DNA of 64,000 bases from an uncultured cyanobacterium (GTDB taxonomy: Bacteria; Cyanobacteriota; Cyanobacteriia; Cyanobacteriales; CAWUOF01), in contig CAVUSO010000001.1 of the NCBI GenBank assembly GCA_963744145.1, positions 1,184,001 to 1,248,000 on the forward strand, written 5' to 3'. The stretch's first letter is position 1. Each line of letters begins with the position of its first letter. The translations under genes and the position numbers were made by a program. The notes under the pieces are model-generated. The model was not told the origin of the DNA. It ran no database searches and was given only the letters and a program-made list of their open reading frames with translations. Shown here piece by piece: positions 18,837 through 57,133 of this stretch.

Positions 18837-19037
18837 TTTTGCTATATTCAATTACATTTCGTAGAGATAAAATAATCGCAAATATCTCCATAAAACCACC
18901 AGAGTGAAAGCTTCTAGTGTGCGATCACTTTCCAATTGGCCAATCTCAGAGCCAGTTATTGCGATCGCACTCCCAAAAGATTTAGAGAAATATTTGCCTG
19001 TCCACAAAAGAAAAAATCCTGCACAAGGCGTCCATAT

Positions 19038-19283
19038 TTACCAAACAAGACACCAAGCACAGAACTCTAAAAAATTTCTTAATCTCATTCTACAAGGCTT
19101 GGTTAATTTGGTCAAATCTGGATAGCAGCAGGGCTCAGTAAATCCCCAAAGGTGCCCTATGTCTACCACAACATCAGCAGCACGCACCATGATGGCATTT
19201 TTGATCCAATCTGGTAACTGTTCCAAAATGATTTGTCCAGCATTGGGTAAGAGTTGCTCGTATTCCTTCGTTTCTTGCATCAT
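19038..19283 (-). pseudogene. Fragment of a small conserved cyanobacterial protein fused to unrelated sequence
   Basis: MQETKE...AGQIILEQLPDWIKNAIMVRA resembles the start of a known small family; the sequence then diverges. Confidence 0.35.
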
Positions 19284-19331
19284 TTCTACTCCATCGGAAT
19301 CTGGGCACTTCTGAACAGTTGATTAGTTTTT

Positions 19332-20495: not shown

Positions 20496-20513
20496 ATCAT
20501 TATTTAGATATTA

Positions 20514-29491: not shown

Positions 29492-32314
29492 CTATGAAGT
29501 CCATCCAATCGAACAGACAACCCGAAAACCGAAGATGTCGAAGCGGAGAGCCGGCCCAAAACCGTTGCGACACCCAGAACGACAATCCCGCGGATTAACG
29601 AACCACGAGCCACCACGCAGCAACCGATGGTCCGCAGTGTTTAAGCCAAGCGGATCATAGTCAAGCGAGCCACCACGCACCGACCGATTAGTTTGATTGT
29701 CCGCAGCGTTGGTTAATAAGTCAATGCTGTTTTGATAATGATTCTTATTCTTATCTTCATCCCAGACTGAACCATCTCTCGGCGCACCCTCATAATTGTC
29801 ATGCCAAGGATCTGCACACCACTCCCAGACATTTCCGTGCATATCGTACAGTCCAAAGGAGTTAGCCACGTTAAAAGTGCCTACTGGTGTAGTTTCACAA
29901 CGGTAAATCCCTTTTGGACCTTGACCGTAGGAACCTGAATCTTTATCATCTGTACCTCGATAATTTGCTAAATCTGTTGTAATAGTCTTGCCAAAGTGAA
30001 ATGGTGTAGTTGTACCAGCCCGACAAGTATATTCCCATTCTGCTTCGCTAGGTAAGCGATATTTTTTCCCTGTCTGTTTCGACAGTCTGGCACAGAATTC
30101 TACCACCTCATACCAGTTAACTTGCTCTACAGGTAGATTTTCTCCTGTAAACTTAGAGCAATCTGGCTCTAGCTTATAGCGAATTTTGGGCAGTTTTGTT
30201 GCCACAGCTTTCCACTGCGCTTGAGTAACAGGGTATTTCCCTATAAAAAAGTGTTCGACACTTACTTCATGTTGGGGTTTTTCATGGTCATAGCTTCCTT
30301 CTTCATTTTTAGCCGCACCCATCCGGAAATTACCACCAGGGATGTAAACCATATCGAGAGCGACACCTTCATCCAAATTTTCCCTAAAATATGATGCTTG
30401 CTTAGTTTTCCGTGCGATTTCTTTACCGCGTTTATCAACTGTTACTGTTTCAAAGGTAAAAGTTGGCAGTTTTCTTTCTTTCGGAACGGTTAAAAGTACC
30501 CCGTCAACCTTAAAATCATCCAGTTGTTTATAAATCTCTTGCGCCCCTTCCTGATAACCTCTTCCCTCACGCGCTAATCCTTGTGCAAACTTTAGCAATG
30601 GCTCAAATCCTTTTTCTACTAAAGGTTCAGCAAAAGTTGTAACCAAAGCAGCAGTTTTAATTTTTTCATCTAAAACCTTACCAACAAGTGCCTGTTGCAG
30701 CTTTTCGGCAATTTTTTTAGCAAGTTGAGTCGGTTCAGTATAACCAAGGGGAATCCAGTCAGGATGTTCACCACCCAAATCAATAGTTTCCTCTAATCCC
30801 TGGTGCAAGTAATAAAGGAAAGCTCCAGATAAATCGCGCAGTTGTTGTTCTCCAAAGCGGATCGTTAACGCTTTCAGCAATAAATGACGAACTGTGCTAT
30901 CCATCTGATATAAATTCCCACCGATCGACTCGCACAATGGAGAGAGCAAAAGACGGGGAACAGCAATCCAAGGTAAATTAGAGATAAAATTCTCTGACAA
31001 AAAATACAGCAAATGGGGAGTAACTGCCAAGGGAAAAGCCGCATAATAAGCTAAATTCAAATATTCAGGGAAATAATCGGCAAATTCAGATAATTTCTCG
31101 ATCGCTTCTTCATAATGGGGTTTTTCCCGATGTTGCTCTAAGACTTCATCTAATTTCTCCCAAGATTTATAATCAATTTCTAGCTCTAATGACGATTCAG
31201 TGAAATTTGTCTCAGTAATTGGTTGTCCTCGGAGCGATCGCAGTAATTCTTGCCATCCCAAAACACTAAAAGGAAACATGGGAACGCGATCGGCAATTTG
31301 GTGAGCAGTTGTGCCTAACCAATCCTCTTGGGGCCAAGGATTGAGCCAAACAATTTGATGAACAAACTTTTCTAATTGGGTGATAAAATTCTCAATTAAT
31401 TCGATTCTAGTCTTATTAATAATCGGAGTAGTAGCCGCAGCATCACTAAATATTAAAACTTGCGTCCGTATTGGGTGTAATTTGGGTAAAATTTCATCAA
31501 GGGAGAGTTTAGTTAATAATTTTGGATCAGTAAATAAAGCATCTCTCGGACTATTACGAAAATAGAATATATTTAATGATTTAAAAATCCCGCTCACCCT
31601 TGCAGTTTCCACCAGATACTCAGCAATTAAGTGAAAAGGAATCATCGAATTACTTTGGTCAATTAACAACAGTAATTCAACTTGATTGACTCGACTGGGA
31701 CGATAGACAATTTCCGCAATATTTTCTTGACAAATCCGCTTAACTGTGCTAGGAATATCTAATTCAATATCGCTTCCTGTGCGTAAATATTTCCTCAGAA
31801 AACACCAACCTCTTAATAATAGTGTTTTAGTTAAGGGTAAATATTCGTGATTGAAGATATATTGATCATGGGAAGGTTTCGGTTCTGATTTAGTCGGTGG
31901 AACAGCAACACCAACACCCACAAGCAGCTCTGAATTGTCTAGATTGGAAACATTCTGCTCAAGATTATTTACCCCATCCTTGCGATCGGGTAAATCTCCT
32001 CCTAACTTCTGATCAGGATTTAAGCGATCAAACCGTTCCTTTTCTCCCAAAACTTCCTGACTTTTTGGGATGAATTTAGGAGTTGATTTGACATCAAAAG
32101 CAGTTGCGATATTTTTTTGTTCTGCTAGAGTTTTTCCCCAAAGCTGCTGACAGAGTTTTTTCAGTTCAGAATAATCTTTAGGACGTAAAGATTCTATCTC
32201 CCACACTTTGTGCAAGAGTGCATAGTTTTCAAACTCTAAGAATAAGCCTAATTTCCTTAAGTTTTCCCTTAAGTCCAGAAAAAATTGCAGTAAAGATGTA
32301 TCATTATGAGTCAT
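29492..32314 (-). CDS. vWA-domain protein with C-terminal FGE-sulfatase (CLec-like) domain; probable DGR target
   Basis: MIDAS LLIDQSNSMIPF, IFSDA, WLNP.P..W; FRMG, YRLPSEAEWEY.CRAGT, GLYDMHGNVWEWC, RGGSW...CRS...GFRVVC. Confidence 0.9.
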   Translation of the reverse strand: MTHNDTSLLQFFLDLRENLRKLGLFLEFENYALLHKVWEIESLRPKDYSELKKLCQQLWGKTLAEQKNIATAFDVKSTPKFIPKSQEVLGEKERFDRLNPDQKLGGDLPDRKDGVNNLEQNVSNLDNSELLVGVGVAVPPTKSEPKPSHDQYIFNHEYLPLTKTLLLRGWCFLRKYLRTGSDIELDIPSTVKRICQENIAEIVYRPSRVNQVELLLLIDQSNSMIPFHLIAEYLVETARVSGIFKSLNIFYFRNSPRDALFTDPKLLTKLSLDEILPKLHPIRTQVLIFSDAAATTPIINKTRIELIENFITQLEKFVHQIVWLNPWPQEDWLGTTAHQIADRVPMFPFSVLGWQELLRSLRGQPITETNFTESSLELEIDYKSWEKLDEVLEQHREKPHYEEAIEKLSEFADYFPEYLNLAYYAAFPLAVTPHLLYFLSENFISNLPWIAVPRLLLSPLCESIGGNLYQMDSTVRHLLLKALTIRFGEQQLRDLSGAFLYYLHQGLEETIDLGGEHPDWIPLGYTEPTQLAKKIAEKLQQALVGKVLDEKIKTAALVTTFAEPLVEKGFEPLLKFAQGLAREGRGYQEGAQEIYKQLDDFKVDGVLLTVPKERKLPTFTFETVTVDKRGKEIARKTKQASYFRENLDEGVALDMVYIPGGNFRMGAAKNEEGSYDHEKPQHEVSVEHFFIGKYPVTQAQWKAVATKLPKIRYKLEPDCSKFTGENLPVEQVNWYEVVEFCARLSKQTGKKYRLPSEAEWEYTCRAGTTTPFHFGKTITTDLANYRGTDDKDSGSYGQGPKGIYRCETTPVGTFNVANSFGLYDMHGNVWEWCADPWHDNYEGAPRDGSVWDEDKNKNHYQNSIDLLTNAADNQTNRSVRGGSLDYDPLGLNTADHRLLRGGSWFVNPRDCRSGCRNGFGPALRFDIFGFRVVCSIGWTS

Positions 32315-33338
32315 TTTTCTTAGACTCCGTAGATTTATGATAGCGCTTTTGTTCTTCGCGAGTCTTTAATAACACTCCCAAATTTTCCTTAATTAATTTA
32401 GGAATATCTTGGATCGGTGTATCAAAAGTAATCACCTTAAAGAAATCTAAAAGTTCGCTTGTACTAGCTTTTTTACTTCCGCTCTTATCAGTTTTACCAC
32501 GCACATCTTGATAAGCAGCAATAATCGGTGAAATATCTATTTCCTGTTCGCCAAAATGGGCTTTAATAATTTTTTCTAATTGGGTTGCATCGGGCGATTC
32601 TAAATAGTAAAATAAACACCGTCTTAAAAAAGCATTAGGCAAAGGTTTTTCATCATTACTGGTAATAATAATCAGCGGAGAAGCAATTTTTTTAACTTCT
32701 TCACCTGTTTCCTCAATAAAAAAACGTTTTTCATCTAATTCTAACAGGAGATCATTAGGAAAATCTAGATCAGCCTTATCAATCTCATCAATCAAAACGA
32801 TCGCCGGAATCGGAGTTTTAAAGGCTTTTCCTAAAGCGCCAAATTTAATATAACCTAACTGGTTTTCATTTTGCAGACGGCTAATAGTTTTTTGGCGAAT
32901 TTCAGGAGATAAATATTCGCTTTGAGCTAGTTGAGTATCCCGCAAACGTCCAACCGCATCATAGGTATAAAGCCCATCTCTAGCACGACTAAGAGATTTT
33001 ATATACCAGGTATAAAAAGGCCACTCTTTATTGTTGATCCATTCTTGTGCCCATTCTTCATGCTCGAGTTTTTCCTTTGCAGTTTCGATAAGCTGTGGAT
33101 ATTTATGAGCAAATTCATAAGCGATCGCACTTGCTAATTGAGTTTTTCCAGTACCCGGTTCACCCATTAATAATAGAGGTCGATCAAGAGCGATCGCGAG
33201 TTTAACCATTCGTTTGAGATCATCACTAGGACAATAGGGAAGATCCTTAGCTCTAGGTGGTGGGTTGATATCACCTGTGTACTCTAGGTTAAAAGGGTTA
33301 ATATTATTATCCATCTGTTTTAAATGTAAGTCTGTCAT
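32304..33338 (-). CDS. MoxR-family AAA+ ATPase
   Basis: RPLLLMGEPGTGKT, LYTYDAVGRL, VLIDEIDKADLDFPNDLL, ITSN.EK.LP.AFLRRC. Confidence 0.93.
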   Translation of the reverse strand: MTDLHLKQMDNNINPFNLEYTGDINPPPRAKDLPYCPSDDLKRMVKLAIALDRPLLLMGEPGTGKTQLASAIAYEFAHKYPQLIETAKEKLEHEEWAQEWINNKEWPFYTWYIKSLSRARDGLYTYDAVGRLRDTQLAQSEYLSPEIRQKTISRLQNENQLGYIKFGALGKAFKTPIPAIVLIDEIDKADLDFPNDLLLELDEKRFFIEETGEEVKKIASPLIIITSNDEKPLPNAFLRRCLFYYLESPDATQLEKIIKAHFGEQEIDISPIIAAYQDVRGKTDKSGSKKASTSELLDFFKVITFDTPIQDIPKLIKENLGVLLKTREEQKRYHKSTESKKNDS

Positions 33339-33360
33339 AGTTCAATATAGTTCATTTAAG

Positions 33361-33473
33361 GGCGTTGCTTAATCAGGGTATGAAAATCCTGTAGGGGCGC
33401 ATGGCCATGCGCCCTGGGCGTATTGCCATACGCCCCTACAAATTATTTATTCATACCGTAAATCAGCAACGCC
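33361..33473. mobile_element. MITE with internal REP-like palindromes
   Basis: IRs GGCGTTGCT / AGCAACGCC; 8-bp duplication CATTTAAG (33353-33360, 33474-33481). Confidence 0.85.
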
Positions 33474-33507
33474 CATTTAAGAATATTTTGGAGATACGGG
33501 CAAATCA

Positions 33508-33595
33508 GGGCGAAGCATTCGGATATAATATTGCTGGTTTGAGCGTTCAATTGTCGCCCGAATGCTTCGCCCCTACACTTAACTGAATCGTATTG
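33508..33595. repeat. REP-like palindromic element (related copies at 53704-53800 and 60936-61006)
   Basis: GGGCGAAGCATTCGG ... CCGAATGCTTCGCCC arms. Confidence 0.8.
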
Positions 33596-33597
33596 TG

Positions 33598-34770
33598 TCA
33601 TAGTTCAAATTCTTTCTCAATATATGACCATCTACAACTAGATTTAGCACAAATTGCCTCAAACACATCTTCCGGAGTGCCATTCTTGCTCTTATTCCAT
33701 ATTTCCTGAAATAAGTTTTCGATTGGGTCATCATCAGGATGGTTTAACAATGTACTATACTGTTCTAACCAATGGCTTAAAACTGGACTCCAAGTAACCG
33801 TACTAGATTCATTATTTGTGCTAAATTTTTTGATAACTGGTAAACTAATAGGTATTTGAGAATGCCAGTTATCTAGATCATTACAAGAAGCCCAGTTAAT
33901 TTTCCATTTAGAAGCTTGAACTTGATTATCAGTTAAAAACATAAAAAGATAATTTTTTACTTTCGGATCAGTTGCAGAATAGGTACTGATTTTTTTGCTC
34001 AGAGGTTTCCAAAAATTTTCAATCAACTTATAAATTACATCCTGGTGGAAAGTATGGATATTAAGAATTTTGATCGCGACAGTTTGTGTTTTCCAGTATT
34101 CAAAAGTTTTATCTACATAATTTTCAGTTTTTCCTTCTGGTACACCCAGTTGTTTTGCTAATCGGTGCCAAACTTCATCAATATTAACCTCTTGTGAATG
34201 ATTAAAATGAACTTTAATCTGCTTAAGTGTAACATAATCCTTTGGAATATTATCCTCTAATAATCGATGTATTAACCAACGTTGACCATGCTTTGGCTCA
34301 CCTTGAATTAGAAAAGCACCTACTCTGGTGATCTGATTCGTGATCAAATTTCTGAAGGGGTCACATTGAGCTTCATAATTAAGTTTTAACAAAGCTTTTG
34401 CTAACCTATTAACATTCTGACTATTTATTGGATTTCTTGAAAAAGATTGTCCATTTGGTAATGTACGGTAATCTTCTCCTTCTTTAAGAGTCATGACATC
34501 TATTTGTAGACGTTGATGATAGGAATTTCCATATAGTTTAATTAATTCTTGGTGTAACTTATAAAATAATTTATCTAAGCTAGAGAAAGTTACAGGGTCT
34601 TTACCTTTTTGAATTTTTGCAAATAATTCTCTATCCAGTCCAGTCAGACTGCTAATCGCAGTATTAGTAACTTTTTCTTTATTAAATATAGGTTTTAACG
34701 CATTCGCAAGCTTTTGCTGTCCCTTTGGTTCTAATAAACATCGATGGTCAGAGCCTTTTTGAGTATACAT
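33598..34770 (-). CDS. HTH + inactive STAND (iSTAND-like) protein of a MoxR-vWA ternary system
   Basis: N-terminal Xre-like HTH (ISSLTGLDRELFAKI...LDKLF); LLKLNYEAQ...AFLIQGEPKHGQRWLIHRL degenerate P-loop; FW.PL; LFMFLTD; directly upstream of MoxR and vWA genes. Confidence 0.75.
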   Translation of the reverse strand: MYTQKGSDHRCLLEPKGQQKLANALKPIFNKEKVTNTAISSLTGLDRELFAKIQKGKDPVTFSSLDKLFYKLHQELIKLYGNSYHQRLQIDVMTLKEGEDYRTLPNGQSFSRNPINSQNVNRLAKALLKLNYEAQCDPFRNLITNQITRVGAFLIQGEPKHGQRWLIHRLLEDNIPKDYVTLKQIKVHFNHSQEVNIDEVWHRLAKQLGVPEGKTENYVDKTFEYWKTQTVAIKILNIHTFHQDVIYKLIENFWKPLSKKISTYSATDPKVKNYLFMFLTDNQVQASKWKINWASCNDLDNWHSQIPISLPVIKKFSTNNESSTVTWSPVLSHWLEQYSTLLNHPDDDPIENLFQEIWNKSKNGTPEDVFEAICAKSSCRWSYIEKEFEL

Positions 34771-36010: not shown

Positions 36011-39000
36011 TTATTTAACATCCAAATCTGTTACCCCATCCCAGTCTAGCGGAACTCCATACTTTAAATGTTGTTGACAGCGTTTCACATATAGCATCGC
36101 TGCCTGATCTTGAGGATTAGTGGCTAATATTCGCGTAAATATAGGTTGCGCCCCCACAAAATCTTGGCGATTATAAGCCATCACCGCGGCTTCAAACCTA
36201 CTCTTAGTTTGCGTCTTTAATTGATGAGATAATCCCTCTTCTGGATCATAGATTTCATAAATTGCCACCGCATTATTTTTCCCTTTCACTCGCACCCGAT
36301 CGAGAAATCTAAAACTATAATGCTGAATTTCTTCAATCCGAACTAAAGTATGTACACTGATTAAAATTCCCGCTCCATATAACTTGGTTAATCCTTCCAA
36401 TCGCGAAGCTAAATTCACCGCATCAGAAATTACTGTTGTCTCCATTCGTTCCGGTTCTCCAATGGTTCCTAACATTAAATTACCTGTATGTAAACCAATC
36501 CCAATCGCGATCGGCACTAATCCTTGTTGTTGTCGCTCTTGATTAAAAAGTGCGACTTTTTGCTGCATCGAAATTGCGGCTTGAACTGCACCATCTGCTG
36601 ACTGGGGAAATAAAGCCATAATCCCATCCCCAATATACTTATCAATAAAACCATCATGTTCTCTAATCACAGGACTAACTTGGCTTAAATAAGCATTAAT
36701 AAAATTAAAAATCTCTTGGGGTGTCATCCCTTCTGACAGATGAGTAAAGGAGAGAATATTAGCAAACATTACCGTCATTTCTTGCTGAATTTGGTTACCA
36801 ATTTGAACATCAATAATGCTGTCTTTTCCTAAAAAATTGAGGAAATCTCGTGGTACAAATCGTCCATAAGCTAAAGTGAGTTTAGCTAAATTCAAATGAG
36901 TTTTTATCCGCGCCAGCATTTCCTGTTTTTGAATCGGTTTAGTCAAATAATCATTGGCACCTAATGTAAATCCCTCTACAATATTTTCGGGTTGATTTTT
37001 GGCTGTTAAAATCACAATGGGCAGTTCATGAGCCGGAAAACGTTCACGAATTTTCTGACAAACTTCATAACCCGTCATCCGGGGCATCATCAGATCCAGT
37101 AAGATCAAATCTGGGATAAAACCATTTTCGATAATCGCTAAAGCTTCTGTGCCATTACAGGCTTCTGTCAGAGTATAATTGGCAAGAGAAAGGATATTGA
37201 TTAACACCTGACGATTAATCGGTTCATCATCAACGATTAAGATTTTAAATTGTTGGCTATCAGCCGCCAAATTAACAGCTTTTTGCCTAGGTGTTAAAGT
37301 AAGTAATTCCACAGTAAGGCTGTCTCGTAGTACCGTAATTGGTGGCGTTGATTTAACTTTTTCGGAGGCAATGGGTAAAGTAAAGGTAAACTTTGAGCCG
37401 ACCCCAATTTGAGACTGGAGCGTAATTGTCCCACCATGGATTTCCACCAGTTTTTTCGTTACAGCTAATCCTAATCCGGTGCCACCATATTCTCTCGCAG
37501 TGGAACCTTCTGCTTGTTCAAAGGATTGAAAAATCTGGTCAAACTTATCTTGGGCAATGCCAATACCTGTGTCAGAAATAGTCACAGATAGTAGCTCTTC
37601 TTGGTCAGAAGATATCACTTGTGCCGAAACTTCAATAGTACCGGACGGAGTGAATTTGATCGCATTACCAATTAAATTATGAAGAATTTGTTGTAAGCGA
37701 TTTTCATCAGCCAGAGCATTGGGTAAGTCTTCCGGAATTGCATTGATGAACTGGAGGTTTTTCTGTTGAGCTAAAGGTTGGCTGAGAGTGAGGACAATCT
37801 GGGTAATCGCTCTTAAATCGACGGGTGTTAATTTGAGTTCAAGATGGTGGTGTCTGAGTTTAGAAAAATCAAGAATATCGTTAATTAAACTGGCGAGACG
37901 GCGACCACTAGAGACAATTAATTGCAAGTTGGTTTGAGTGGTGGTTGGGAGTTCTCCTGTCGCACCATCAATTAATGATTCAGCAATACCAATAATCCCA
38001 TTCAGAGGAGTGCGGAGTTCGTGGGAAGTATTGGCGAGAAATTCATCTTTGAGTTGGTCGAGATGATATAGTTCTTGGTTTTTAGTCTCCAGTTTTTCAA
38101 ACGAATTCTTCAATTGTCCTCCCATGTGATTGAACGAATTTACTAGGGTATCCAGTTCCATAATGGGACTGGGTGGAATATCCTGATCCAGGTGACCTTG
38201 AGCCAGTTCATCAGATGCTTGGGAGACACGCAAAATGGGACTAATCACCCAACGAGCAGTGTAAATACCGATCGCGATCGCTAAACTCAGTACCCCTAAA
38301 CAGAGCCAAACTATGTTGGGAGTGTTAGCATAAATTTGGTCCATGAAGTCAGATTCAGGAATAATAATGACAATGAGCCAGTCTAGATTCAAGTTCTTAA
38401 AGGGTACGACTTGGATATATTGCTTCTGGTTATGTAAATTAAAGTCAATTTGTTGGACGGATTGAATCTGGTTGAGGTTGTGAAAGCGATCGCTCAAAAA
38501 CTGAGCCGTAGCTTTAATCGTAGGATTAGGACTATCAACTGCTGCCAGACGGGTAGTATTTTCTCCCGTACCCTTGAGGATAGATTCGGGTCCAGAAGTG
38601 GAAATCAGTTGTCCGGAGCGTTCCATAATAAACACCGTACCTGTGATCCCAATATTCAAACTTTGGAGAAACTTCGACATTTCTTGGGGCAAAAAGAACT
38701 CGCTCCCACAAACCCCAATCAAAGATTGATCGGTTAGGCTATAGACCGGTACACTGGAAGCGATCGAGGGCAATAAAGTCGAAAAATCAAGATATTCGCT
38801 CCAGACACTTTGCCCTGTTTCCTTTGCAGCTTTGTACCAAGGGCGAATGCGGGGATTGTAAGGCTTATAAGATAAAGTATCTACCTGCTGAGTCGGATTA
38901 CCTTGAGTATCTAAAGCAAAATATTGGTTGATCGATTTGGTGGATGGATTGCTAAATACGAGGGTCAATTTTGAGCGATCTTCTTTGGAAAACCTAGCAA

Positions 39001-39373
39001 CACCAAGGAATCCAGTATTTTCATCGCCACAGAAAGTATAGCTAATGAAAGGATAGGTCTGCATTTGCTCCCAGATTTGCGCTGCACCTTTCACTTCGCT
39101 CACATCAATGACACCCCTAGCCAAGGAGGAAGCATTGAGACGACTAATAGAGTAAGGAATTTCTGTATAGGATTTTAGTTTTTCTTCAATCCGCTTTGAT
39201 AATTCTAAACGTAATTGACTGGCCACATCATTAACTGCTTGCTGCCCATCGCGGAAAGAGAGATAGCTCACCAAACAAACCGTTGCCATGATTTGTAACA
39301 CAAAAGGCACCACCAGGGTGGTGCGGAGCCGAAATTTTAGGGATGATTTGTTAACTGCATTAAAATCATTCAT
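36011..39373 (-). CDS. Hybrid kinase-adenylate cyclase paralogue A (dCache-HAMP-HisKA-HATPase-REC-class III cyclase-TPR); first metal-binding Asp replaced by Asn
   Basis: 2 TMs, PRIRPWY Cache motif, [45 protein letters not shown]. Confidence 0.92.
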   Translation of the reverse strand: MNDFNAVNKSSLKFRLRTTLVVPFVLQIMATVCLVSYLSFRDGQQAVNDVASQLRLELSKRIEEKLKSYTEIPYSISRLNASSLARGVIDVSEVKGAAQIWEQMQTYPFISYTFCGDENTGFLGVARFSKEDRSKLTLVFSNPSTKSINQYFALDTQGNPTQQVDTLSYKPYNPRIRPWYKAAKETGQSVWSEYLDFSTLLPSIASSVPVYSLTDQSLIGVCGSEFFLPQEMSKFLQSLNIGITGTVFIMERSGQLISTSGPESILKGTGENTTRLAAVDSPNPTIKATAQFLSDRFHNLNQIQSVQQIDFNLHNQKQYIQVVPFKNLNLDWLIVIIIPESDFMDQIYANTPNIVWLCLGVLSLAIAIGIYTARWVISPILRVSQASDELAQGHLDQDIPPSPIMELDTLVNSFNHMGGQLKNSFEKLETKNQELYHLDQLKDEFLANTSHELRTPLNGIIGIAESLIDGATGELPTTTQTNLQLIVSSGRRLASLINDILDFSKLRHHHLELKLTPVDLRAITQIVLTLSQPLAQQKNLQFINAIPEDLPNALADENRLQQILHNLIGNAIKFTPSGTIEVSAQVISSDQEELLSVTISDTGIGIAQDKFDQIFQSFEQAEGSTAREYGGTGLGLAVTKKLVEIHGGTITLQSQIGVGSKFTFTLPIASEKVKSTPPITVLRDSLTVELLTLTPRQKAVNLAADSQQFKILIVDDEPINRQVLINILSLANYTLTEACNGTEALAIIENGFIPDLILLDLMMPRMTGYEVCQKIRERFPAHELPIVILTAKNQPENIVEGFTLGANDYLTKPIQKQEMLARIKTHLNLAKLTLAYGRFVPRDFLNFLGKDSIIDVQIGNQIQQEMTVMFANILSFTHLSEGMTPQEIFNFINAYLSQVSPVIREHDGFIDKYIGDGIMALFPQSADGAVQAAISMQQKVALFNQERQQQGLVPIAIGIGLHTGNLMLGTIGEPERMETTVISDAVNLASRLEGLTKLYGAGILISVHTLVRIEEIQHYSFRFLDRVRVKGKNNAVAIYEIYDPEEGLSHQLKTQTKSRFEAAVMAYNRQDFVGAQPIFTRILATNPQDQAAMLYVKRCQQHLKYGVPLDWDGVTDLDVK

Positions 39374-39421
39374 ACCATCTCCATATTAAACCATATTTCG
39401 GGCAATTTTGAAAATAAAATT

Positions 39422-39545
39422 AGACAAGAAAGCAAAAGTCCTTATTGATCTATTTATTGACAGGCAAGATGCCTGTCCCACCAGAAAAAATCACTTTTGT
39501 GGGACAGGCATCTTGCCTGTCCTATTTATTTTTGCTTTCTTGTCT
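39422..39545. mobile_element. MITE with IS5/ISL2-like ends upstream of paralogue A
   Basis: IRs AGACAAGAAAGCAAAA / TTTTGCTTTCTTGTCT; ATT duplication; empty site preserved upstream of paralogue B (about 42993-43032). Confidence 0.9.
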
Positions 39546-39594
39546 ATTGAATCAATTCTATAAATGCACTCAGGAAAAAATAGATTTTTGATAA

Positions 39595-42500
39595 TTAGTT
39601 AAAATCCAAATCAGTCACACCATCCCATCCAACCGGAACTCCATACAGTCGATATTTTTGACAGCGTTTCACATAGAGCATTGCTGCCTGATCTTGAGGA
39701 TTAGTAGCTAATATTTCCTCAAATACAGGTTGCGCCCCCACAAAATCCTGGCGATTATAAGCCATCACCGCTGCTTCAAACATACTCTTAGTCTGCGTCT
39801 TTAATTGATGAGATAATCCCGCTTCTAGATCATATATTTCATAAATAGCCACCGCATCATTTTTCTCGTTCACCCGTACCCGATCCAAAAATCTGAAACT
39901 ATAATGCTGAATCTCTTCAATCCGAATCAAGGTATGGATACTAATTATGATACCAACTCCATATAACTTAGTTAAACCTTCCAAATGTGAGGCTAAATTC
40001 ACCGCATCAGAAATTACTGTTGTCTCCATCCGTTCTGGTTCTCCAATGGTTCCTAACATTAAATTCCCCGTATGTAAACCAATTCCAATCGCGATCGGCA
40101 CTAATCCCTGTTGTTGTCGCTCTTGATTAAAAAGTGCGACTTTTTGCTGCATCGAAATTGCGGCTTGAACTGCACCATCTGCTGACTGGGGAAATAAAGC
40201 CATAATTGCATCCCCAATATACTTATCAATAAAACCATCATGTTCTCTAATCGCCGGACTAACTTGAATTAAATAAGCATTAAGAAAATTAAAAGCATCT
40301 TGGGGTGTCATCCCTTCTGACAGATGAGTAAAGGAGCGAATATCGGCAAACATCACTGTCATTTCTTGTTGACTTTGATTGCCAATTTGAACATCAATAA
40401 TGCTGTCTTTCCCTAAAAAATTGAGGAAATCTCGTGGTACAAATCGCCCGTAAGCTAAAGTAAGTTTAGCTAAATTCAAATGAGTTCTCATTCGCGCCAG
40501 CATTTCCTGTTTTTGAATCGGTTTAGTCAAATAATCATTGGCACCTAATGTAAATCCCTCTACAATATTTTCGGTTTGATTTTTGGCTGTTAAAATCACA
40601 ATGGGCAGTTCATGAGCCGGAAAACGTTCACGAATTTTCTGACAAACTTCATAACCCGTCATCCGGGGCATCATCAGATCCAGTAAGATCAAATCTGGGA
40701 TAAAACCATTTTCGATAATCGCTAAAGCTTCTGTGCCATTACAGGCTTCTGTCAGAGTATAATTGGCAAGAGAAAGGATATTGATTAACACTTGACGATT
40801 AATCGGTTCATCGTCAACGATTAAGATTTTAAATTGTTGGCTATCAGCCGCAAAATTAACAGCTTTTTGCCTAGGTGTTAAAGTAAGTAATTCCACAGTA
40901 AGGCTGTCTCGTAGTACCGTAATTGGTGGCGCTGATTTAACTTTTTCAGAGGCAATGGGTAAAGTAAAGGTAAACTTTGAACCGACACCAACTTGAGACT
41001 GGAGCGTAATTGTCCCACCATGGATTTCCACCAGTTTTTTCGTCACAGCTAATCCTAATCCGGTGCCACCATATTCTCTGGCTGTCGAACCTTCTGCTTG
41101 TTCAAAGGATTGAAAAATCTGGTCAAACTTATCTGGGGCAATGCCAATACCTGTGTCAGAAATAGTCACAGCTAATAGCTCTTCTTGGTCAGAAGATATC
41201 ACTTGTGCCGAAACTTCAATAGTACCTGACGGAGTGAATTTAATCGCATTACCAATTAGATTATGGAGGATTTGTTGTAAGCGATTTTCGTCAGCCAGAG
41301 CATTGGGTAAGTCTTCCGGAATCGCGTTGATGAATTGGAGATTTTTTTGTTGGGCTAAAGGTTGGCTGAGGGTGAGGACAATCTGGGTAATCGCTCTTAA
41401 ATCGACGGGTGTTAATTTGAGTTCAAGATGGTGGTGTCTAAGTTTAGAAAAGTCAAGAATATCATTAATTAAACTGGCGAGACGGCGACCACTAGAGACA
41501 ATTAATTGCAAGTTGGTTTGAGTGGTGGTTGGGAGTTCTCCTGTCGCCCCATCGATCAATGATTCAGCAATACCAATAATCCCATTTAGAGGAGTGCGGA
41601 GTTCGTGGGAAGTATTGGCGAGAAATTCATCTTTGAGTTGGTCGAGATGATATAGTTCTTGGTTTTTAGTCTCCAGTTTTTCAAACGAATTCTTCAATTG
41701 CCCTGCCATGTGATTAAACGAATCCGCCAGGGTATCCATTTCCATAATAGAACTAGGCCCAATATGCTGATCCAGATGACCTTGAGCCATTTCATTAGAT
41801 GCTTGGGAGACACGTAGGATGGGATGAGTCACCCAACGAGCAGTGTAAATACCGATCACGATCGCTAAACTCATTGCCCCCAAACAGAGCCAAACTGTGT
41901 TGAGAGTGCTGGCATAAATTTGTCCCATGAAGTCAGATTCAGGAATGATAATCACAATCAGCCAGTCTAGATTCAAGTTCTTAAAGGGTACGACTTGGAT
42001 ATATTGTTTCTGGTCATGTAAATTAAAGTCAATTTGTTGGACAGATTGAATCTGGTTGAGGTTGTGGAAGCGATCGCCTAAAAACTGAGCCGTAGCTTTA
42101 ATCGTAGGATTAGGACTATCAACTGCTGCTAGACGGATGGTATTTTTTCCTGTGCCCTTGAGCATCGGTTCGGGGGTAGAAGTGGCAATCAGTTGCCCAG
42201 AGCGTTCTACAATAAATACTGTACCAGTTTTACCAATACTCAAACCTTGGAGAAAATTCGACATTTCTTGAGGTAAATAGAAGTCAGTAGAACAAACCCC
42301 AATCAAAGATTTATCTGTTAGGCTATAGACAGGCATATTCGCGGTTGCCGAGGGATAAAAAGTAGCAAAATCAAGAAAAATTTCGCTCCAGACACTTTGC
42401 CCTGCTGCTTTTGCCGCTTTGTACCAAGGGCGAAGTCGGGGATCGTAGGGCGTATCAAACGAACCTGCGGGCTGAGTGCGATTACCTTGGGCATCGAAGT

Positions 42501-42975
42501 TAAAGTATTGGCGCATCAACTTGGTTGATGGATTGCTAAATGCGAAGATAAATTTTGAGCGATCTTGGTCTGAAAGTCTACCAACACCTAAAAAACCAGC
42601 TTTTTCATCGCCACAAAAAATATAGCTAATGGTAGGATAGGTCTGCATTTGCTGCCACATTTGCGCTTCACCTTTTACTCCGCTCACATCAATTACACCC
42701 CTAGCGAAAGCAGAAGCATTGATTCGGTTGATGGAGTAAGAAATTTCTGTATAGGATTGTAGTTTTTCCTCAATGCGATTCGATAATTCTGAGCGCAATT
42801 GACTCGCCACATGATTGACTGCTCGCTGTCCATTGCAGAAGGAAATATAGCCCACCAAACAAACCGCAGCCACGATTTGTAATACGAAGGGCACTAGCAG
42901 AGCGGTGCGGAGCCGAAATTTTAGGGATGTTTGGTTAACCTTAAAATCATTCAGACTATCTCTTGATTTAACCAT
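39595..42975 (-). CDS. Hybrid kinase-adenylate cyclase paralogue B; catalytic Arg replaced by His, VKGK replaced by VNEK
   Basis: Same architecture; [27 protein letters not shown]. Confidence 0.92.
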   Translation of the reverse strand: MVKSRDSLNDFKVNQTSLKFRLRTALLVPFVLQIVAAVCLVGYISFCNGQRAVNHVASQLRSELSNRIEEKLQSYTEISYSINRINASAFARGVIDVSGVKGEAQMWQQMQTYPTISYIFCGDEKAGFLGVGRLSDQDRSKFIFAFSNPSTKLMRQYFNFDAQGNRTQPAGSFDTPYDPRLRPWYKAAKAAGQSVWSEIFLDFATFYPSATANMPVYSLTDKSLIGVCSTDFYLPQEMSNFLQGLSIGKTGTVFIVERSGQLIATSTPEPMLKGTGKNTIRLAAVDSPNPTIKATAQFLGDRFHNLNQIQSVQQIDFNLHDQKQYIQVVPFKNLNLDWLIVIIIPESDFMGQIYASTLNTVWLCLGAMSLAIVIGIYTARWVTHPILRVSQASNEMAQGHLDQHIGPSSIMEMDTLADSFNHMAGQLKNSFEKLETKNQELYHLDQLKDEFLANTSHELRTPLNGIIGIAESLIDGATGELPTTTQTNLQLIVSSGRRLASLINDILDFSKLRHHHLELKLTPVDLRAITQIVLTLSQPLAQQKNLQFINAIPEDLPNALADENRLQQILHNLIGNAIKFTPSGTIEVSAQVISSDQEELLAVTISDTGIGIAPDKFDQIFQSFEQAEGSTAREYGGTGLGLAVTKKLVEIHGGTITLQSQVGVGSKFTFTLPIASEKVKSAPPITVLRDSLTVELLTLTPRQKAVNFAADSQQFKILIVDDEPINRQVLINILSLANYTLTEACNGTEALAIIENGFIPDLILLDLMMPRMTGYEVCQKIRERFPAHELPIVILTAKNQTENIVEGFTLGANDYLTKPIQKQEMLARMRTHLNLAKLTLAYGRFVPRDFLNFLGKDSIIDVQIGNQSQQEMTVMFADIRSFTHLSEGMTPQDAFNFLNAYLIQVSPAIREHDGFIDKYIGDAIMALFPQSADGAVQAAISMQQKVALFNQERQQQGLVPIAIGIGLHTGNLMLGTIGEPERMETTVISDAVNLASHLEGLTKLYGVGIIISIHTLIRIEEIQHYSFRFLDRVRVNEKNDAVAIYEIYDLEAGLSHQLKTQTKSMFEAAVMAYNRQDFVGAQPVFEEILATNPQDQAAMLYVKRCQKYRLYGVPVGWDGVTDLDFN

Positions 42976-43187: not shown

Positions 43188-46100
43188 TTACTTAAAATCT
43201 AAATCTGTTACACCATCCCAACCGACCGGAACTCCATACTGTCGATATTGGTGACAGCGTTTCACATACAGCACCGCTGCCTGATCTTCAGGATTAGTGG
43301 CTAATATTTCCTCAAATACGGGTTGCGCTCCGACAAAATCTTGGCGATTATAGGCCATCACTGCTGCTTCAAAAATACTCTTTGTTTGCGTCTTTAATTG
43401 ATTAGAAAATCCCCCATCTGTCTCATAGATTTCATAAATTGCCACTGCATCATTTTTGCCTTTCACCCGCACCCGATCGAGAAATCTAAAACTATAATGT
43501 TGAATTTGTTCAATCCGAACTAAAGTATGTACACTGATTAAGATCCCGACTCCATATAACTTGGTTAATCCTTCCAACCGTGAGGCTAAATTTACTGCAT
43601 CAGCAATTACTGTTGTCTCCATCCGTTCCGGTTCTCCAATGGTTCCTAACATTAAATTACCTGTATGTAAACCAATCCCAATCGCGATCGGCACTAATCC
43701 CTGTTGTTGTCGCTCTTGATTAAAAAGTGCGACTTTTTGCTGCATCGAAATTGCCGCTTGAACTGCCCCATCTGCGGATTGGGGAAATAGCGCCATAATC
43801 GCATCTCCAATATACTTATCAATAAAACCATCATGTTCTCTAATCGCCGGACTAACTTGACTTAAATAGGCATTAATAAAATTAAAATTCTCTTGAGGTG
43901 TCATCCCTTCTGATAGAGTAGTAAAGGAGCGAATATCGGCAAACATTACGGTCATTTCCTGCTGAATTTGGTTACCAATTTGGACATCAATAATGCTGTC
44001 TTTCCCTAAGAAGTTGAGAAAATCTCGCGGCACAAATCGCCCGTAAGCTAAAGTCAGTTTGGCTAAATTCAAATGAGTTTTCATCCGCGCCAGCATTTCC
44101 TGTTTTTGAATGGGTTTAGTCAAATAATCATTAGCACCTGATGTAAATCCATCCACAATATTTTCGGTTTGATTTTTCGCCGTCAGGATCACAATTGGCA
44201 ATTCATGAGCTGGAAAACGTTCGCGAATTTTCTGACAAACTTCATAACCAGTCATCCGGGGCATCATCAAATCTAGGAGGATCAAATCGGGGATAAAACC
44301 ATTTTCAATTGTGGCTAAAGCTTCTTCTCCATTACTGGCTTCAGTCAGGGTGTAATTATAAAGGGAAAGATTGTTAATTAAGACCTGACGATTAATCGGT
44401 TCGTCATCAACAATTAAGATTTTGAATTGTTGGTTGTCAGTGGCAATATTTACAGTTTTTTGAATGGAAGATAAAGCGATCGATTCAGGAACAAATTTGT
44501 TGCCAAGTGTGGCAATTGGTGACACTAATTTAGCTTTTTCTTGGGCAATAGGTAAGGTAAAAGTAAATTGTGAGCCTACTCCGACTTGTGATTCGATAGT
44601 AATTTCACCACCATGTAATTCGACGAGTTGTTTGGTAACAGCTAATCCCAATCCGGTGCCACCATATTCTCTCGCTGTCGAACCTTCCGCTTGTTCAAAG
44701 GATTGAAAGATCCGCTCGAAATTATCTTGGGCAATCCCAATTCCTGTATCCGAAATAGTGACAGCTAATACATCCTCTTGATTAGGAGATATCACTTTTG
44801 CCGAGACTTCGACAGTTCCAGATGGGGTGAATTTAATGGCATTGCCAATCAGGTTATAGAGAATTTGTTGTAAGCGATTTTCGTCGGCTTCCGCATGAGG
44901 TAAATCTTCAGGAATAGCGTTGATTAACTGTAAATTTTTCTGCTGGGCTAAAGGTTGACTGAGGGTGATAATAATATTAGTAATGGCTCTTAAATCAACA
45001 GGTGCTAATCGTAGTTCTAGGTTATTGTGTTTGAGTTTCGAGAAGTCAAGAATATCGTTAATTAAGCTGGCCAGACGGCGACCACTGGAGACTATTAATT
45101 GCAGGTTGCTTTGGGTAGTAGAAGGGAGTTCCCCCGTTGCGCCATCAATGAGTGATTCGGCAATACCAATAATCCCATTGAGAGGGGTGCGGAGTTCGTG
45201 GGATGTATTCGCTAAAAATTCGTCTTTAAGTTGGTCGAGATGATGTAGTTCTTCATTTTGATTAGCTAGAGTTTCTTTTTGAACTTCGAGGGTAGTAAAA
45301 GATTGCTTGAGTTGTACCGCCATGCTATTGAAGGACTGTTCTAGGGTTTCAATTTCTTCAATTTCAATTGCATCACTTATTTCTAGCTGTTGATCCAGAT
45401 TTCCTTTGGCAAGTTCTTGAGAGGCTTGAGTTAATTTGAGAATGGGTTTAGTAATTAAACGTGCTGTGAAGATGCCAATTAAAATTGCTACTCCCAATGC
45501 TGCCAAGGTTAACCAAATTGTGTTACGGGTATTAGTATTGATTTGCTCCATAAAATCTGACTCTGGTACAATCACCACAATCAGCCAGTTTAATCCTTCG
45601 TTATCTTGATAGGGGACTACTTGTAAAAATCGCTGCTGCCCTGCTATTTCAACATTAAGATTTTGCAACTTTTGAATTTGCTTAAAGCTGTCAAATTGCT
45701 TGATTAGATATATGGCTGTTTCTTGAGTAACAGAGTCGCTACTTTCTATAGCTTTGAAAAGTTCTCCTTTATTATTGTTGAATCGAACTAGATTTTCAGA
45801 GGTAGAAGTTGCAACTAATACTCCTTCCTGGGTGATCACAAATGTCTGCCCTGATTTACCCACTTTTAAACTCTGCAAAAATTGTGAGATGCTATCTAGG
45901 CGTAAAGTTACGTTCAAGACTCCTTCTAACTGACCATTTTGCGTGTAGACGGGTTGTACCGCACTGATTTGCATTTTGGGTTCAGTAAATGAAATCTCAA
46001 CTTGACTCCAAGATTTTTTCCCAGCTTTAACCCCATCTTGATACCAAAGTCTTTTTCGCCCATCAAAGTTTTTTATTACCCTAGAAACTTTAGTTGTATC

Positions 46101-46574
46101 GCCTTTTTCAGTAGCATTCCAAGCATAAAAATTAAAATTGGTAGATTCGTTACATAGGTTGAAAAGCAAAGTTTCATCTGCCAGTCTTTGTCCTGATATT
46201 ACATTTCCTTTGTTATTAACAAATGCAATAAAATCCAAGTTGGGGTATGACATCAGTTCTGGCCAAAAATATCTTTTTAAATTCATTAATTCCCGTAAGT
46301 TCAACCCCATATTTACAGCATTTAGGTTAATTTGATTGATTTGATGGGGAATCGCCAGGTAAGCTTTTATGTTTTGTTGAATGCGATCGGTAATTTCGTT
46401 TTGTACTTGACTAGCAACTTCATAAACAGCTCTTTGTCCGTTTTTAAAGGAGAGATATCCTACCAACCCCACAGCCCCAACAATTTGCAAAATAAACGGG
46501 ATAATCAGAACTGTTCGCAAGGGAAGTTTCCCTAAAACAGTTCCCACTTGGCGATTTATAATGTTGATAGACAT
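43188..46574 (-). CDS. Hybrid kinase-adenylate cyclase paralogue C (different dCache sensor); ATG 46574 inferred
   Basis: All kinase, REC and cyclase motifs intact. Confidence 0.92.
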   Translation of the reverse strand: MSINIINRQVGTVLGKLPLRTVLIIPFILQIVGAVGLVGYLSFKNGQRAVYEVASQVQNEITDRIQQNIKAYLAIPHQINQINLNAVNMGLNLRELMNLKRYFWPELMSYPNLDFIAFVNNKGNVISGQRLADETLLFNLCNESTNFNFYAWNATEKGDTTKVSRVIKNFDGRKRLWYQDGVKAGKKSWSQVEISFTEPKMQISAVQPVYTQNGQLEGVLNVTLRLDSISQFLQSLKVGKSGQTFVITQEGVLVATSTSENLVRFNNNKGELFKAIESSDSVTQETAIYLIKQFDSFKQIQKLQNLNVEIAGQQRFLQVVPYQDNEGLNWLIVVIVPESDFMEQINTNTRNTIWLTLAALGVAILIGIFTARLITKPILKLTQASQELAKGNLDQQLEISDAIEIEEIETLEQSFNSMAVQLKQSFTTLEVQKETLANQNEELHHLDQLKDEFLANTSHELRTPLNGIIGIAESLIDGATGELPSTTQSNLQLIVSSGRRLASLINDILDFSKLKHNNLELRLAPVDLRAITNIIITLSQPLAQQKNLQLINAIPEDLPHAEADENRLQQILYNLIGNAIKFTPSGTVEVSAKVISPNQEDVLAVTISDTGIGIAQDNFERIFQSFEQAEGSTAREYGGTGLGLAVTKQLVELHGGEITIESQVGVGSQFTFTLPIAQEKAKLVSPIATLGNKFVPESIALSSIQKTVNIATDNQQFKILIVDDEPINRQVLINNLSLYNYTLTEASNGEEALATIENGFIPDLILLDLMMPRMTGYEVCQKIRERFPAHELPIVILTAKNQTENIVDGFTSGANDYLTKPIQKQEMLARMKTHLNLAKLTLAYGRFVPRDFLNFLGKDSIIDVQIGNQIQQEMTVMFADIRSFTTLSEGMTPQENFNFINAYLSQVSPAIREHDGFIDKYIGDAIMALFPQSADGAVQAAISMQQKVALFNQERQQQGLVPIAIGIGLHTGNLMLGTIGEPERMETTVIADAVNLASRLEGLTKLYGVGILISVHTLVRIEQIQHYSFRFLDRVRVKGKNDAVAIYEIYETDGGFSNQLKTQTKSIFEAAVMAYNRQDFVGAQPVFEEILATNPEDQAAVLYVKRCHQYRQYGVPVGWDGVTDLDFK

Positions 46575-46707
46575 AATAGAATTTCCCTCAATTGAATACT
46601 TTTTTTTGGCTACTAAGGAAAGAGAAATAGTCAACTCAGCTAATACTTGACAATAATTCAAGGGAATATTTATAGTTAAGCTGAAACAATCAATATTGTC
46701 TTGCCCA

Positions 46708-49700: not shown

Positions 49701-50100
49701 AGTAGAGAGGATCAGATGTACCGAATAATCCCGAACTGACAAAATCTCCCTGTGCATTAATCACCTGGAGACCATATACTTCTGGAAATTGCTGGTTTTG
49801 CAGGGTAAGATAGCGTTCTAACTTCGATAAATCATTGATATTTATCTGTCCCAATTCTACCGCATTGGCATTGAGACGATTAATTTTCGGCGGAATTTTC
49901 AGGTAATTTTCGAGATATAAGGAAACCCGATCGCCTGCTGCACTCATTAATCGATTGGCTAGTTCTTCTACTGCTTGTTGTCCATTTCTGTAGGAGAGAT
50001 AACCTACCAGCCCAACAGCAGCAACAATTTGGATTACAAAGGGTACGACGATCGCGGTATGGAGACGGAATTTTTGACGGATAGGTTTGGTAAAGCTCAT
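46708..50100 (-). CDS. Hybrid kinase-adenylate cyclase paralogue D (different dCache sensor)
   Basis: All kinase, REC and cyclase motifs intact. Confidence 0.92.
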
Positions 50101-50175
50101 AATTTAATTTCTTCAAATAAATTAAAAAATTGTTAAGCTGCGATCGCGCATCAAGTTTGCCAATCCTGATGATGT

Positions 50176-53100: not shown

Positions 53101-53559
53101 ACGATCCATTGCATAAAAATAAAAGTTGTAATCAGTTTCTTGATTACTTACAGACATGGCAATGGTTGGCAAATTATGATAAAGAAAGCGATAAGCACCT
53201 AAGTATTGCCCTTGGGAATCACCGCAGTAAGATGAATAAATAAAAGGAGAAATCTGCACTTGAGTGAGAAATTGTTTACCATTGCTGGCATTTGTCATAT
53301 CAAATTCACCCTCAGCAAATGTCGCTGCATTGAGCTGATTGAAAGTATGAGGACTCTCAAGATATTTCCTCAGTTCTCCATCAATCCGAGCTGTAAGTTC
53401 GTTCCGCAATTGGGTTGCTAAGTCATTGACAGCTTTTTGGCTAGTGCGGAAAGAGAGATAGCCCACTAAACCAGCAGCAGCCACAATTTGCAGAACAAAT
53501 GGCACTACCAGGGTAGTACGAAGACGGAATTTTCGGGGGATAGGTTTGTTAATGCTCAT
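50176..53559 (-). CDS. Hybrid kinase-adenylate cyclase paralogue E (different dCache sensor)
   Basis: YDPRKRPWY Cache motif; all catalytic motifs intact. Confidence 0.92.
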
Positions 53560-53897
53560 AACTCGGTTTTTTTTGTTACTATTAACGGGTTAGCCTTTTT
53601 GATGTATTCCTTCAAGACCTCAAGATCAAACTCCGGTAACTATTCGCTTTTTTAAGCAATATCCCGATTAAAATCCCAACAGCTAATTTCCCAGAAGAAG
53701 TGTGAAGCATTCGGATCTAATGTTACTCTTATAATCGCTCAATTTTCGCCCGAATGCTATGCCTCCGGCACGCTACGCAAACACCCCTACACTTAATTGA
53801 ACTATTTTGCACTAAAAAAGAAGTGATTAGCTAGTTGCATAAAATTCTTCTTTTGATAGGAGTTAATTTTAATATTCTGGTGCTTGATTTTTGCTAC

Positions 53898-56687: not shown

Positions 56688-57133
56688 GTCTAATTTTTTC
56701 TGAGAATTTTCAAAAATCTTTCCCTGCAAAGCTTTGAGGAAATTAAAGCTTTATATATCATCACAAACTGTGATTGAATCGGTCATCCTATTCAGTTAGA
56801 TTGCACACACTCGGGATAAATATGATAACAATTTTTGATCATATTAGCCGATCGCGACCGCATGACCATCCGATGATCGGGACATCAGTCTTACCACCAA
56901 AAAACCTTGTGGGACAGAGGTCTGATCTGTCCTAATTATTTTTGTCAGAGGTCTATTGTGAAGATGCGTTTACCCGGAAAAGTTCACCCATCCTGATTTT
57001 TGATGTGGGTTGACGATGATTGGGAATCCTTGGTAAGTTAAAAATCTTCAGCTACTGATAAATTGAAAATGCTGAGATATTAATTGCTCAACTCACCTAT
57101 TATTTAGATATGTTGTATCACCAGTGAAGCAAG

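Follow-up and report, generated by a model that had tools for sequence, protein, structure and literature searches.

Two neighbouring adenylate cyclases of an uncultured cyanobacterium carry complementary catalytic losses and may form a heterodimer

Can two neighbouring bacterial cyclases, each with a damaged active site, make one working enzyme together? A 64,000-nucleotide stretch of the genome of an uncultured cyanobacterium (contig CAVUSO010000001.1, positions 1,184,001 to 1,248,000 of the forward strand; hereafter, the window) raises this question. Its open reading frames and their translations include a tandem array of six genes on the minus strand, A to F, whose products all end in a class III cyclase module. 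Genes A and B are neighbours with intact reading frames, and each deviates from the rest of the array at catalytic residues. An earlier note on this sequence had proposed that the two proteins work only as a pair. We find this the likeliest reading, if a little short of probable: A and B may be complementary, so that a complete catalytic site would be present only in the mixed dimer.

The active site of class III cyclases is understood to span the dimer interface, with one chain providing the metal side and the other the side that binds base, ribose, and phosphate. Protein A reads FANILSFT at the first metal-binding Asp (D872N and R874L), and it keeps NLASRLE, VKGK, and IGD. Protein B reads NLASHLE (R997H) and VNEK (K1036N and G1037E), and it keeps FADIRSFT and IGD. 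All five deviations differ by a single base from the codon that the other paralogues use. C to F retain the canonical D, R (two residues after the first Asp), K, D, T, N, R, K, and G; F reads FVDIRSFT, where the change adjoins the Asp and the Asp itself is kept. The residues and codon positions given in the earlier note were right in every case when checked on the sequence, as were its statement that C to F keep all of the catalytic residues and its division of these residues between the two sides of the interface. It had also described A and B as intact, adjacent, and the most similar pair. This is true overall (87.5% identity, the highest of all 15 pairs, with 67-73% for the others) and from the sensor through the receiver, but it is not true of the cyclase domain, in which A is nearest to F and D, while B diverges more than any other of the six.

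How unusual are these losses? Two protein searches gave 126 sequences with an alignable cyclase domain, of which 119 lie outside the array. In these 119 homologues, the first metal Asp, the transition-state Arg, and the Gly that follows the Lys of VKGK are never substituted, the Arg two residues after the first Asp is present in 115, and the Lys of VKGK is present in 110 (with Q, R, or H in the other 9). The full pattern DRKDTNRKG occurs in 111 of the 126 family sequences, and not one of the 119 has the residue of A or B at any of the five deviating columns. Six core residues are also canonical in all 35 of the further cyclase domains that we examined, from 35 other genome loci. Loss of a core residue in this family is below about 1% per lineage. 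Given that it was otherwise seen in 0 of 119 and 0 of 35 domains, and yet affects two adjacent sisters, the two losses are unlikely to be independent.

Whether the losses are complementary depends on which side of the active site each residue belongs to. We scored nine markers, three on the metal or C1 side (the first Asp, D1; the Arg after it, R+2; and the second Asp, D2) and six on the C2 side (K, T, N, R, and the K2 and G of the VKGK turn), and we assigned them to sides by motif correspondence and by reference to natural two-domain proteins. We reached the latter through a locus, L036 (contig CAYYUI010000006.1), that has six cyclase genes. In an alignment that we checked by eye, five of the six, at 2-7529 (+) and 15308-21075 (-), are complementarily degenerate (see the table). 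Two split pairs, 18370-21075 with 15308-18373 and 1627-4560 with 4557-7529, are translationally coupled neighbours with 4-nucleotide overlaps. Within the C1-like family of the 18370-21075 protein (46-100% identity), both Asp residues (D1 and the one in GD) are kept in 30 of 30 members, and the Lys, the Arg, and the KGK turn are absent from 30 of 30. The named relatives of the L036 proteins are Candidatus Riflebacteria, Rifleibacterium, and Ozemobacteraceae (family members P0235-P0263 and P0279-P0428).

A HMMER search with the C2-like protein at 15308-18373 returned, among the best 150 representatives, 83 single-domain and 67 two-domain proteins. The single-domain proteins are C2-like, with lengths of roughly 250-1130 amino acids (most are near 1000), and just 4 of the 83 retain the first Asp; the second Asp is Glu in 39 of the 83. 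The two-domain proteins have 1315-2422 amino acids, with most near 2000. The C1-like protein from L036 aligns to the first half of all 67, and the C2-like protein aligns to the second half of 65. In the first domain, D1, R+2, and D2 are present in 67 of 67 proteins, while T remains in 27, N in 5, R in 4, K2 in 6, and G in 3; the K position holds Lys in 21 and Arg in 45. The second domain has K in 67, T, N, and R in 66 each, G in 65, and K2 in 63, but D1 and R+2 in just 2 each, and at D2 it has Asp in 36 and Glu in 27. From these counts, R+2 goes with the metal Asp residues, and the Lys-Gly turn goes with the Asn and the Arg. Judging from their residue patterns, these Riflebacteria-type proteins are natural bacterial pseudo-heterodimers.

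Against this yardstick, both losses in A are of the kind seen in the second domain, and all three losses in B are of the kind seen in the first domain, so that 5 of 5 deviating positions fit. The earlier claim that A had lost residues solely from the metal side, and B solely from the substrate and transition-state side, is thus borne out, and it extends to R874L and G1037E. A is C2-like in that it keeps K, T, N, R, K2, and G; its D2 is still present, as it is in 36 of the 67 natural second domains. B is C1-like in that it keeps D1, R+2, and D2, but only in part: of its C2-side markers, it has lost R, K2, and G and still has K, T, and N. Individual substitutions also have natural counterparts. 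P0303, a natural C2-like protein, has N at D1, as A does, and the C1-like protein at 4557-7529 of L036 has His in place of the Arg, as in R997H of B. Finally, B lies upstream of A, and C1-like upstream of C2-like is also the order in the fused and the split natural forms.

What kind of protein are A and B? According to Pfam, A to E have the architecture dCache_1-HAMP-HisKA-HATPase_c-Response_reg-Guanylate_cyc and are 1120-1157 amino acids long. The Guanylate_cyc match in A covers residues 862-1035 (E = 2.5e-18), and all six proteins score 60-69 bits for the class III cyclase domain (PF00211), for which the cut-off is 21.9. Counted from the H-box to the C-terminus, the module has 684 residues in A to E and 683 in F. 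Hundreds of its columns are invariant, and the sensor regions differ between paralogues. The H-box SHELRTP and the DD, D, and K columns of the receiver are invariant in all six, and the order of domains fits the HisKA-HATPase-REC-cyclase module of CyaC. The N-terminal receiver and GAF domains of CyaC are not present: A to E have dCache_1 and HAMP instead, and F has the same kinase-receiver-cyclase module behind about 260 N-terminal residues without a Pfam match (55950-56729), with no transmembrane sensor, dCache, or HAMP. F is predicted to be soluble; a 929-amino-acid form of it is on record (P0124).

The residues K912 and T980 (in the numbering of A) are present in six of six paralogues. Class IIIb cyclases, as Linder and Schultz reportedly set out in 2003, specify their substrate with a Lys and Thr pair, where class IIIa has Asp. 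We take the Lys/Thr pair of the array to be this class IIIb signature, and because of this specificity, we predict that the substrate is adenosine triphosphate (ATP). So A and B are predicted from their sequences to be class IIIb adenylate cyclases of the CyaC type, with a sensor histidine kinase and a receiver. The best solved relatives of the array's cyclase domain are homodimeric class III enzymes: Cya2 (2w01), CyaB (3r5g), OaPAC, bPAC, and CyaC (1wc0, E = 2.4e-19 with the domain of D). We also noticed a conserved tail of about 80 residues after the cyclase domain, ending in a WDGV motif (36011-36250 in A and the equivalent 3' ends of B to F). The same tail is found on a canonical dCache-HAMP-cyclase gene of L036 (11560-11800).

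If complementary subunits are to matter, they must meet. Relative to C, D, and E, both A and B have two deletions, one of 3 residues in the HAMP connector and one of 7 residues in the helix between HAMP and the kinase. Between the SFN.M motif and the H-box, A and B have a distance of 38 residues where C, D, and E have one of 45, a step of one heptad. Among 91 homologues with recognisable landmarks, the same distance is 38 in 72 proteins, 45 in 15, and 56 in 4. A full-length dimer that joined A or B to C, D, or E would have its linkers shifted by a heptad and would be disfavoured, and A:A, A:B, and B:B would be the likely assemblies. Between the H-box and the end of the receiver, the DNA of A and B is 93-100% identical, and the synonymous divergence (dS) is 0.05-0.17 in most windows of 60 codons. 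Given nearly identical dimerisation helices and a common shorter linker, A:B should form readily, while dimers with C to E should not. The geometry of the coiled coil therefore argues that A and B would pair with each other rather than with C to E.

We can now say how the pair might work. Without the metal side in A, and without the other side in B, the A:A and B:B dimers should be crippled, and this would hold at both of their sites. An A:B dimer would have one canonical site, with the metals bound by B and the Lys, Thr, Asn, Arg, and Lys supplied by A, along with one doubly defective pseudo-site. Production of cyclic AMP would then need both A and B, each of which has its own diverged periplasmic dCache sensor. 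Transfer of phosphate from the kinase to the receiver would presumably be required as well, as in CyaC, and the same logic would be the default for the whole array. A:B could act as an AND gate, which is speculative. We would go further only tentatively, to a somewhat less likely scenario: A and B might be a newly born obligate heterodimeric adenylate cyclase, in which sisters became locked together by complementary, degenerative, single-base mutations, in which the pair computes the coincidence of two periplasmic signals, and in which selection keeps the tract of conversion between A and B, which makes their sensor-to-receiver parts alike, out of the cyclase domain. This would be the first step of a route that leads to the split and fused forms of the Riflebacteria and, independently, to eukaryotic C1/C2.

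The history of the array bears on these ideas. With a dS of 0.47-1.0 for the kinase and of 0.14-0.42 for the cyclase domain, the six paralogues are not recent copies. A is nearest to B up to about residue 860, but in the cyclase domain it is nearest to F or D (94-97% identity over residues 962-1061), and the cyclase domain of B has just 82-87% identity with the others over residues 962-1036. This suggests a mosaic history, in which gene conversion among paralogues would homogenise the output module while the sensors diverge, and in which conversion between A and B would stop at the start of the cyclase domain. We also considered whether the divergent cyclase segment of B was imported from another paralogue, and we ruled this out, as its protein is still nearest to D, F, and E (0.91-0.92).

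The likeliest alternative is that A and B have ceased to depend on cyclase output and act solely as hybrid histidine kinases, that their cyclase domains are drifting towards pseudo-domains, and that the complementarity is a coincidence. We think that this is unlikely, but there is a case for it. Both the kinase and the receiver are perfectly conserved in A and B, and the nearest foreign relatives of their sensors include dCache-HAMP-kinase-receiver proteins that have no cyclase (P0007, with 937 amino acids, and P0008, with 925). The substitutions are confined to one genome. Also, the changes in the cyclase domain that are private to one branch include 3 synonymous and 4 non-synonymous ones in A and 10 and 11 in B, as compared to 11 and 4 in C to F together. 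What speaks against decay is that even these 15 non-synonymous changes are fewer than expected without selection. If the neutral non-synonymous fraction is 0.77, then p = 0.20 for A, 0.011 for B, and 0.005 for the two combined (13 synonymous and 15 non-synonymous changes).

Other features of the cyclase domains point the same way. The ratio of non-synonymous to synonymous divergence (dN/dS) is 0.03-0.13 across the kinase and cyclase domains of the array, 0.03-0.07 among C to F in the cyclase domain, and 0.14 between A and B in that domain; in the segment of B around R997H (residues 953-1012), dS is 0.51 and dN/dS is 0.08. Generally relaxed selection would, according to the earlier note, have counted against the pair, and the value of 0.14 between A and B does not show it. 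The cyclase domains of A and B have no frameshift, stop, or indel in about 260 codons. Of the 13 residues that are unique to B, 9 occur in at least one other member of the family, and the remaining four comprise the three marker changes plus S903I; novelty that centres on marker sites is a pattern of targeted loss rather than of general decay. And all 5 marker hits are on complementary sides. The cyclase domains of A and B are somewhat relaxed, but they are clearly not free-running pseudo-domains.

A second alternative is that A and B are promiscuous modulators, each of which pairs with C to F or with a seventh copy, so that each mixed dimer would have one active site and the output of the array would be damped or re-wired. 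Protein identity across the six paralogues is 90-100% in the cyclase, the receiver, and the H-box helices, so the catalytic interface should be compatible, and from the way that roles are partitioned, any canonical partner would complement A or B. The seventh paralogue (P0185) is on the same 7.63-Mb contig, outside the window; it has 1135 amino acids, the same architecture, canonical catalytic residues, and 69% identity to D over the output module. Nevertheless, we consider this explanation improbable. The 7- and 3-residue deletions put A and B in another linker class, with the heptads of A or B out of register with those of C to E (as inferred for a coiled coil), and F has no membrane sensor. 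Nor does it explain why both degenerate copies are sisters and are complementary.

We are equally sceptical of a third alternative, which is that A:A and B:B still make cyclic AMP on their own, if more slowly or with an altered dependence on metal or pH. A does keep the second metal Asp, and B keeps the Lys, the Thr, and the Asn. Natural C2-like domains often have Glu at the second Asp (27 of 67 second domains and 39 of 83 single-domain proteins), so some variation in the chemistry is tolerated, and the published complementation experiments used Ala mutants rather than Asn or His. But the positions that were lost include D1 and the transition-state Arg, which are unsubstituted in 119 of 119 homologues, and natural pseudo-heterodimers give up precisely these positions in the half-site that does not contribute. 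Sequencing error is ruled out by the nature of the changes: five separate single-base substitutions, without indels, in two genes on a 7.63-Mb contig.

Several observations weigh against an obligate A:B heterodimer, and the earlier note's claim of one stands only in part: the substitutions, their rarity, the match of sides, the common linker deletions, and the purifying selection on both domains all hold up, while the loss of homodimer activity, the formation and activity of the heterodimer, its obligate nature, and signal integration are predictions. Complementarity could have arisen by chance. Given the hits, the probability of this is about 0.025 with the five changes taken as independent and about 0.17 with neighbouring changes taken as single events, so complementarity by itself is suggestive, not decisive. 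The damage is incomplete, given the second Asp of A and the Lys, Thr, and Asn of B, and Asn and His are gentler replacements than the Ala used in the literature, so the homodimers could have residual activity. K1036N is less diagnostic than the other changes because Q, R, or H takes the place of this Lys in 9 of 119 otherwise canonical homologues. The excess of non-synonymous singletons in A and B over C to F is not significant (Fisher p = 0.12), but it is in the direction of relaxation, and we estimate a roughly threefold relaxation (private-branch dN/dS of about 0.3 as compared to about 0.1). The low divergence of A over residues 962-1061 may be due to recent gene conversion and not to selection on A.

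There are two more points of this kind. No orthologue of A or B came up in our searches with the sensor region and with the output module, or in a scan of a set of genome contigs that does not include the source genome, where the best of 37 loci has 68% identity; the 90% clusters of A and B have 1 member on 1 contig each, and the best foreign match to the sensors is 67%. With no orthologue in the searched collections, the substitutions are private to one genome, and the changes in A and B may be recent. They may also be private to the strain, which the earlier note had counted against its own reading. Also, A and B are neither fused nor overlapping, as they are 221 bp apart, unlike the Riflebacteria pairs with their 4-nucleotide overlaps. 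Within this spacer (39455-39530), there are two copies, in opposite orientations, of a hairpin with a GC-rich stem of 9-10 bp, one of which is followed by a run of T. These hairpins could serve to terminate transcription of B, or they could belong to a dispersed repeat. With a 221-bp spacer that contains hairpins, A is probably not translationally coupled to B. A scan for promoters and terminators, which also picked up the hairpin, gave counts at the level of shuffled sequence (29 vs. 30.3 and 12 vs. 9.9) and is uninformative about co-transcription.

How does the proposed pair compare to known systems? Animal C1/C2 cyclases are ancient class IIIa (Lys/Asp) enzymes whose C2 lacks both Asp residues. 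B resembles C1 and A resembles C2, in the same order from N to C or from upstream to downstream. But the animal halves are fused in one chain, while A and B are separate class IIIb (Lys/Thr) genes, and A has lost one Asp only, B has lost only the Arg and the Lys-Gly, and their pattern is known from one genome. In the VC1:IIC2 structure, C1 gives the metal-binding Asp residues, and there is one real site and one pseudo-site (PMC4174876). The closest experimental parallel is Rv1625c from Mycobacterium tuberculosis. Its D300A and R376A mutants are each inactive, and co-expression restores activity (PMC4821796; also cited in PMC9552081). As in our proposal, two polypeptides each supply what the other is missing, and R997H of B is at the position homologous to R376. 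In A, by contrast, D872N affects the other metal Asp, which corresponds to D256 rather than D300. The Rv1625c changes are laboratory Ala substitutions in one gene, while A and B arose in nature as paralogues and differ in their sensors. The same study describes complementing pairs with unlike membrane receptors that were active but were no longer regulated by ligand (PMC4821796). Active but unregulated halves call for caution about the AND gate.

CyaC is a homodimer with two equivalent sites. The array shares its HisKA-HATPase-REC-cyclase output module, as found in Spirulina and Anabaena, but CyaC has an N-terminal receiver and GAF domains where A to E have dCache and HAMP. In the Spirulina protein, the intrinsic kinase is described as phosphorylating the proximal receiver, which activates the cyclase (PMC3009899). 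Obligate heterodimers of paralogous class III subunits are described for the alpha and beta chains of soluble guanylate cyclase and for the chytrid rhodopsin-cyclase/NeoR system (PMC3591389, PMC8815786). Unlike A and B, these are eukaryotic guanylate cyclases with other regulatory domains. The Riflebacteria cyclases are bacterial, occur as HAMP-cyclase neighbours or as fusions of about 2000 amino acids, keep and lose the same columns, and include D1-to-N and R-to-H variants. But they are an old and conserved family with fuller degeneration and coupled or fused genes, they have no kinase or receiver module, their identity to A is about 32%, and their activity is also only predicted.

Table. Positions of the array and its key features in the window, and of the degenerate cyclase genes of the L036 locus (contig CAYYUI010000006.1). 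Patterns list D1, R+2, K, D2, T, N, R, K2, and G.
Feature	Position	Strand	Description
Gene A	36011-39373	-	1120 aa (amino acids); C2-like: metal side damaged, substrate/transition-state side intact; pattern N L K D T N R K G
Gene B	39595-42975	-	1126 aa; C1-like: both metal Asp and R(+2) intact; pattern D R K D T N H N E
Paralogues C-F	43188-56729	-	Canonical cyclase residues throughout; comparison set and possible alternative partners
Gene C	43188-46661	-	
Gene D	46708-50100	-	
Gene E	50176-53559	-	
Gene F	53898-56729	-	
Codons of A: N872 (AAT, 36758-36760), I873, L874 (CTC, 36752-36754)	36752-36760	-	
Codon of B: H997 (CAT, within NLASHLE)	39985-39987	-	Replaces the transition-state Arg
Codons of B: N1036 (AAC, 39868-39870) and E1037 (GAG, 39865-39867)	39865-39870	-	Replace the Lys-Gly of VKGK, in the beta7-beta8 turn
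Spacer between B and A	39374-39594	-	221 bp; two hairpin copies
HAMP-to-DHp region of A, aa ~402-441	38050-38170 (approximate)	-	3- and 7-residue deletions relative to C, D, and E; same in B (alignment columns 440-480)
L036 gene	2-1627	+	Metal side present; Thr, Asn, and Lys turn gone
L036 gene	1627-4560	+	First Asp replaced by His; remainder intact
L036 gene	4557-7529	+	C1-like; metal side present; Arg replaced by His, as in R997H of B; Lys-Gly turn absent
L036 gene	18370-21075	-	Metal side present; Lys, Arg, and turn gone
L036 gene	15308-18373	-	Both Asp gone; remainder intact

Some other features of the window deserve mention. The listed TTG start of gene C (46575-46661) adds 28 residues that are absent from the other paralogues; a likelier start is the ATG at residue 29 (MSINIINRQ...), which lines up with those of D and E. 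The genes that flank the array are unrelated to it. Downstream of A (29492-34770) are genes for an iSTAND-domain protein, an AAA/MoxR-like ATPase, and a protein with VWA and FGE-sulfatase domains, which resemble a ternary NTPase system. Beyond F is a gene for a protein with a Tle1-like phospholipase domain (61062-62162), and there are two transposase genes in the left part of the window (7801-8775 and 11034-11756, of the DDE_Tnp_4 and IS1 types). The window encodes no cyclic-nucleotide effector.

If A and B do form a heterodimer, what would it mean? The review literature has bacterial class III cyclases forming homodimers with two equivalent sites, to which the monomers contribute equally, and places the duplication and fusion probably in an early eukaryote (PMC9552081). 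We found no literature on natural bacterial class III cyclases that are heterodimeric or have two complementary domains, nor on the cyclases of Riflebacteria, in searches that largely left out subscription journals. A:B would be a natural and very young case of paralogues that have been made mutually dependent by complementary loss, and bacteria would, after all, possess natural heterodimeric class III cyclases. It would also imply that a tandem array of sensors with a common output module can yield coincidence detection. And the Riflebacteria family suggests that the same end-state has evolved in bacteria on a large scale, which bears on the origin of the C1/C2 design.

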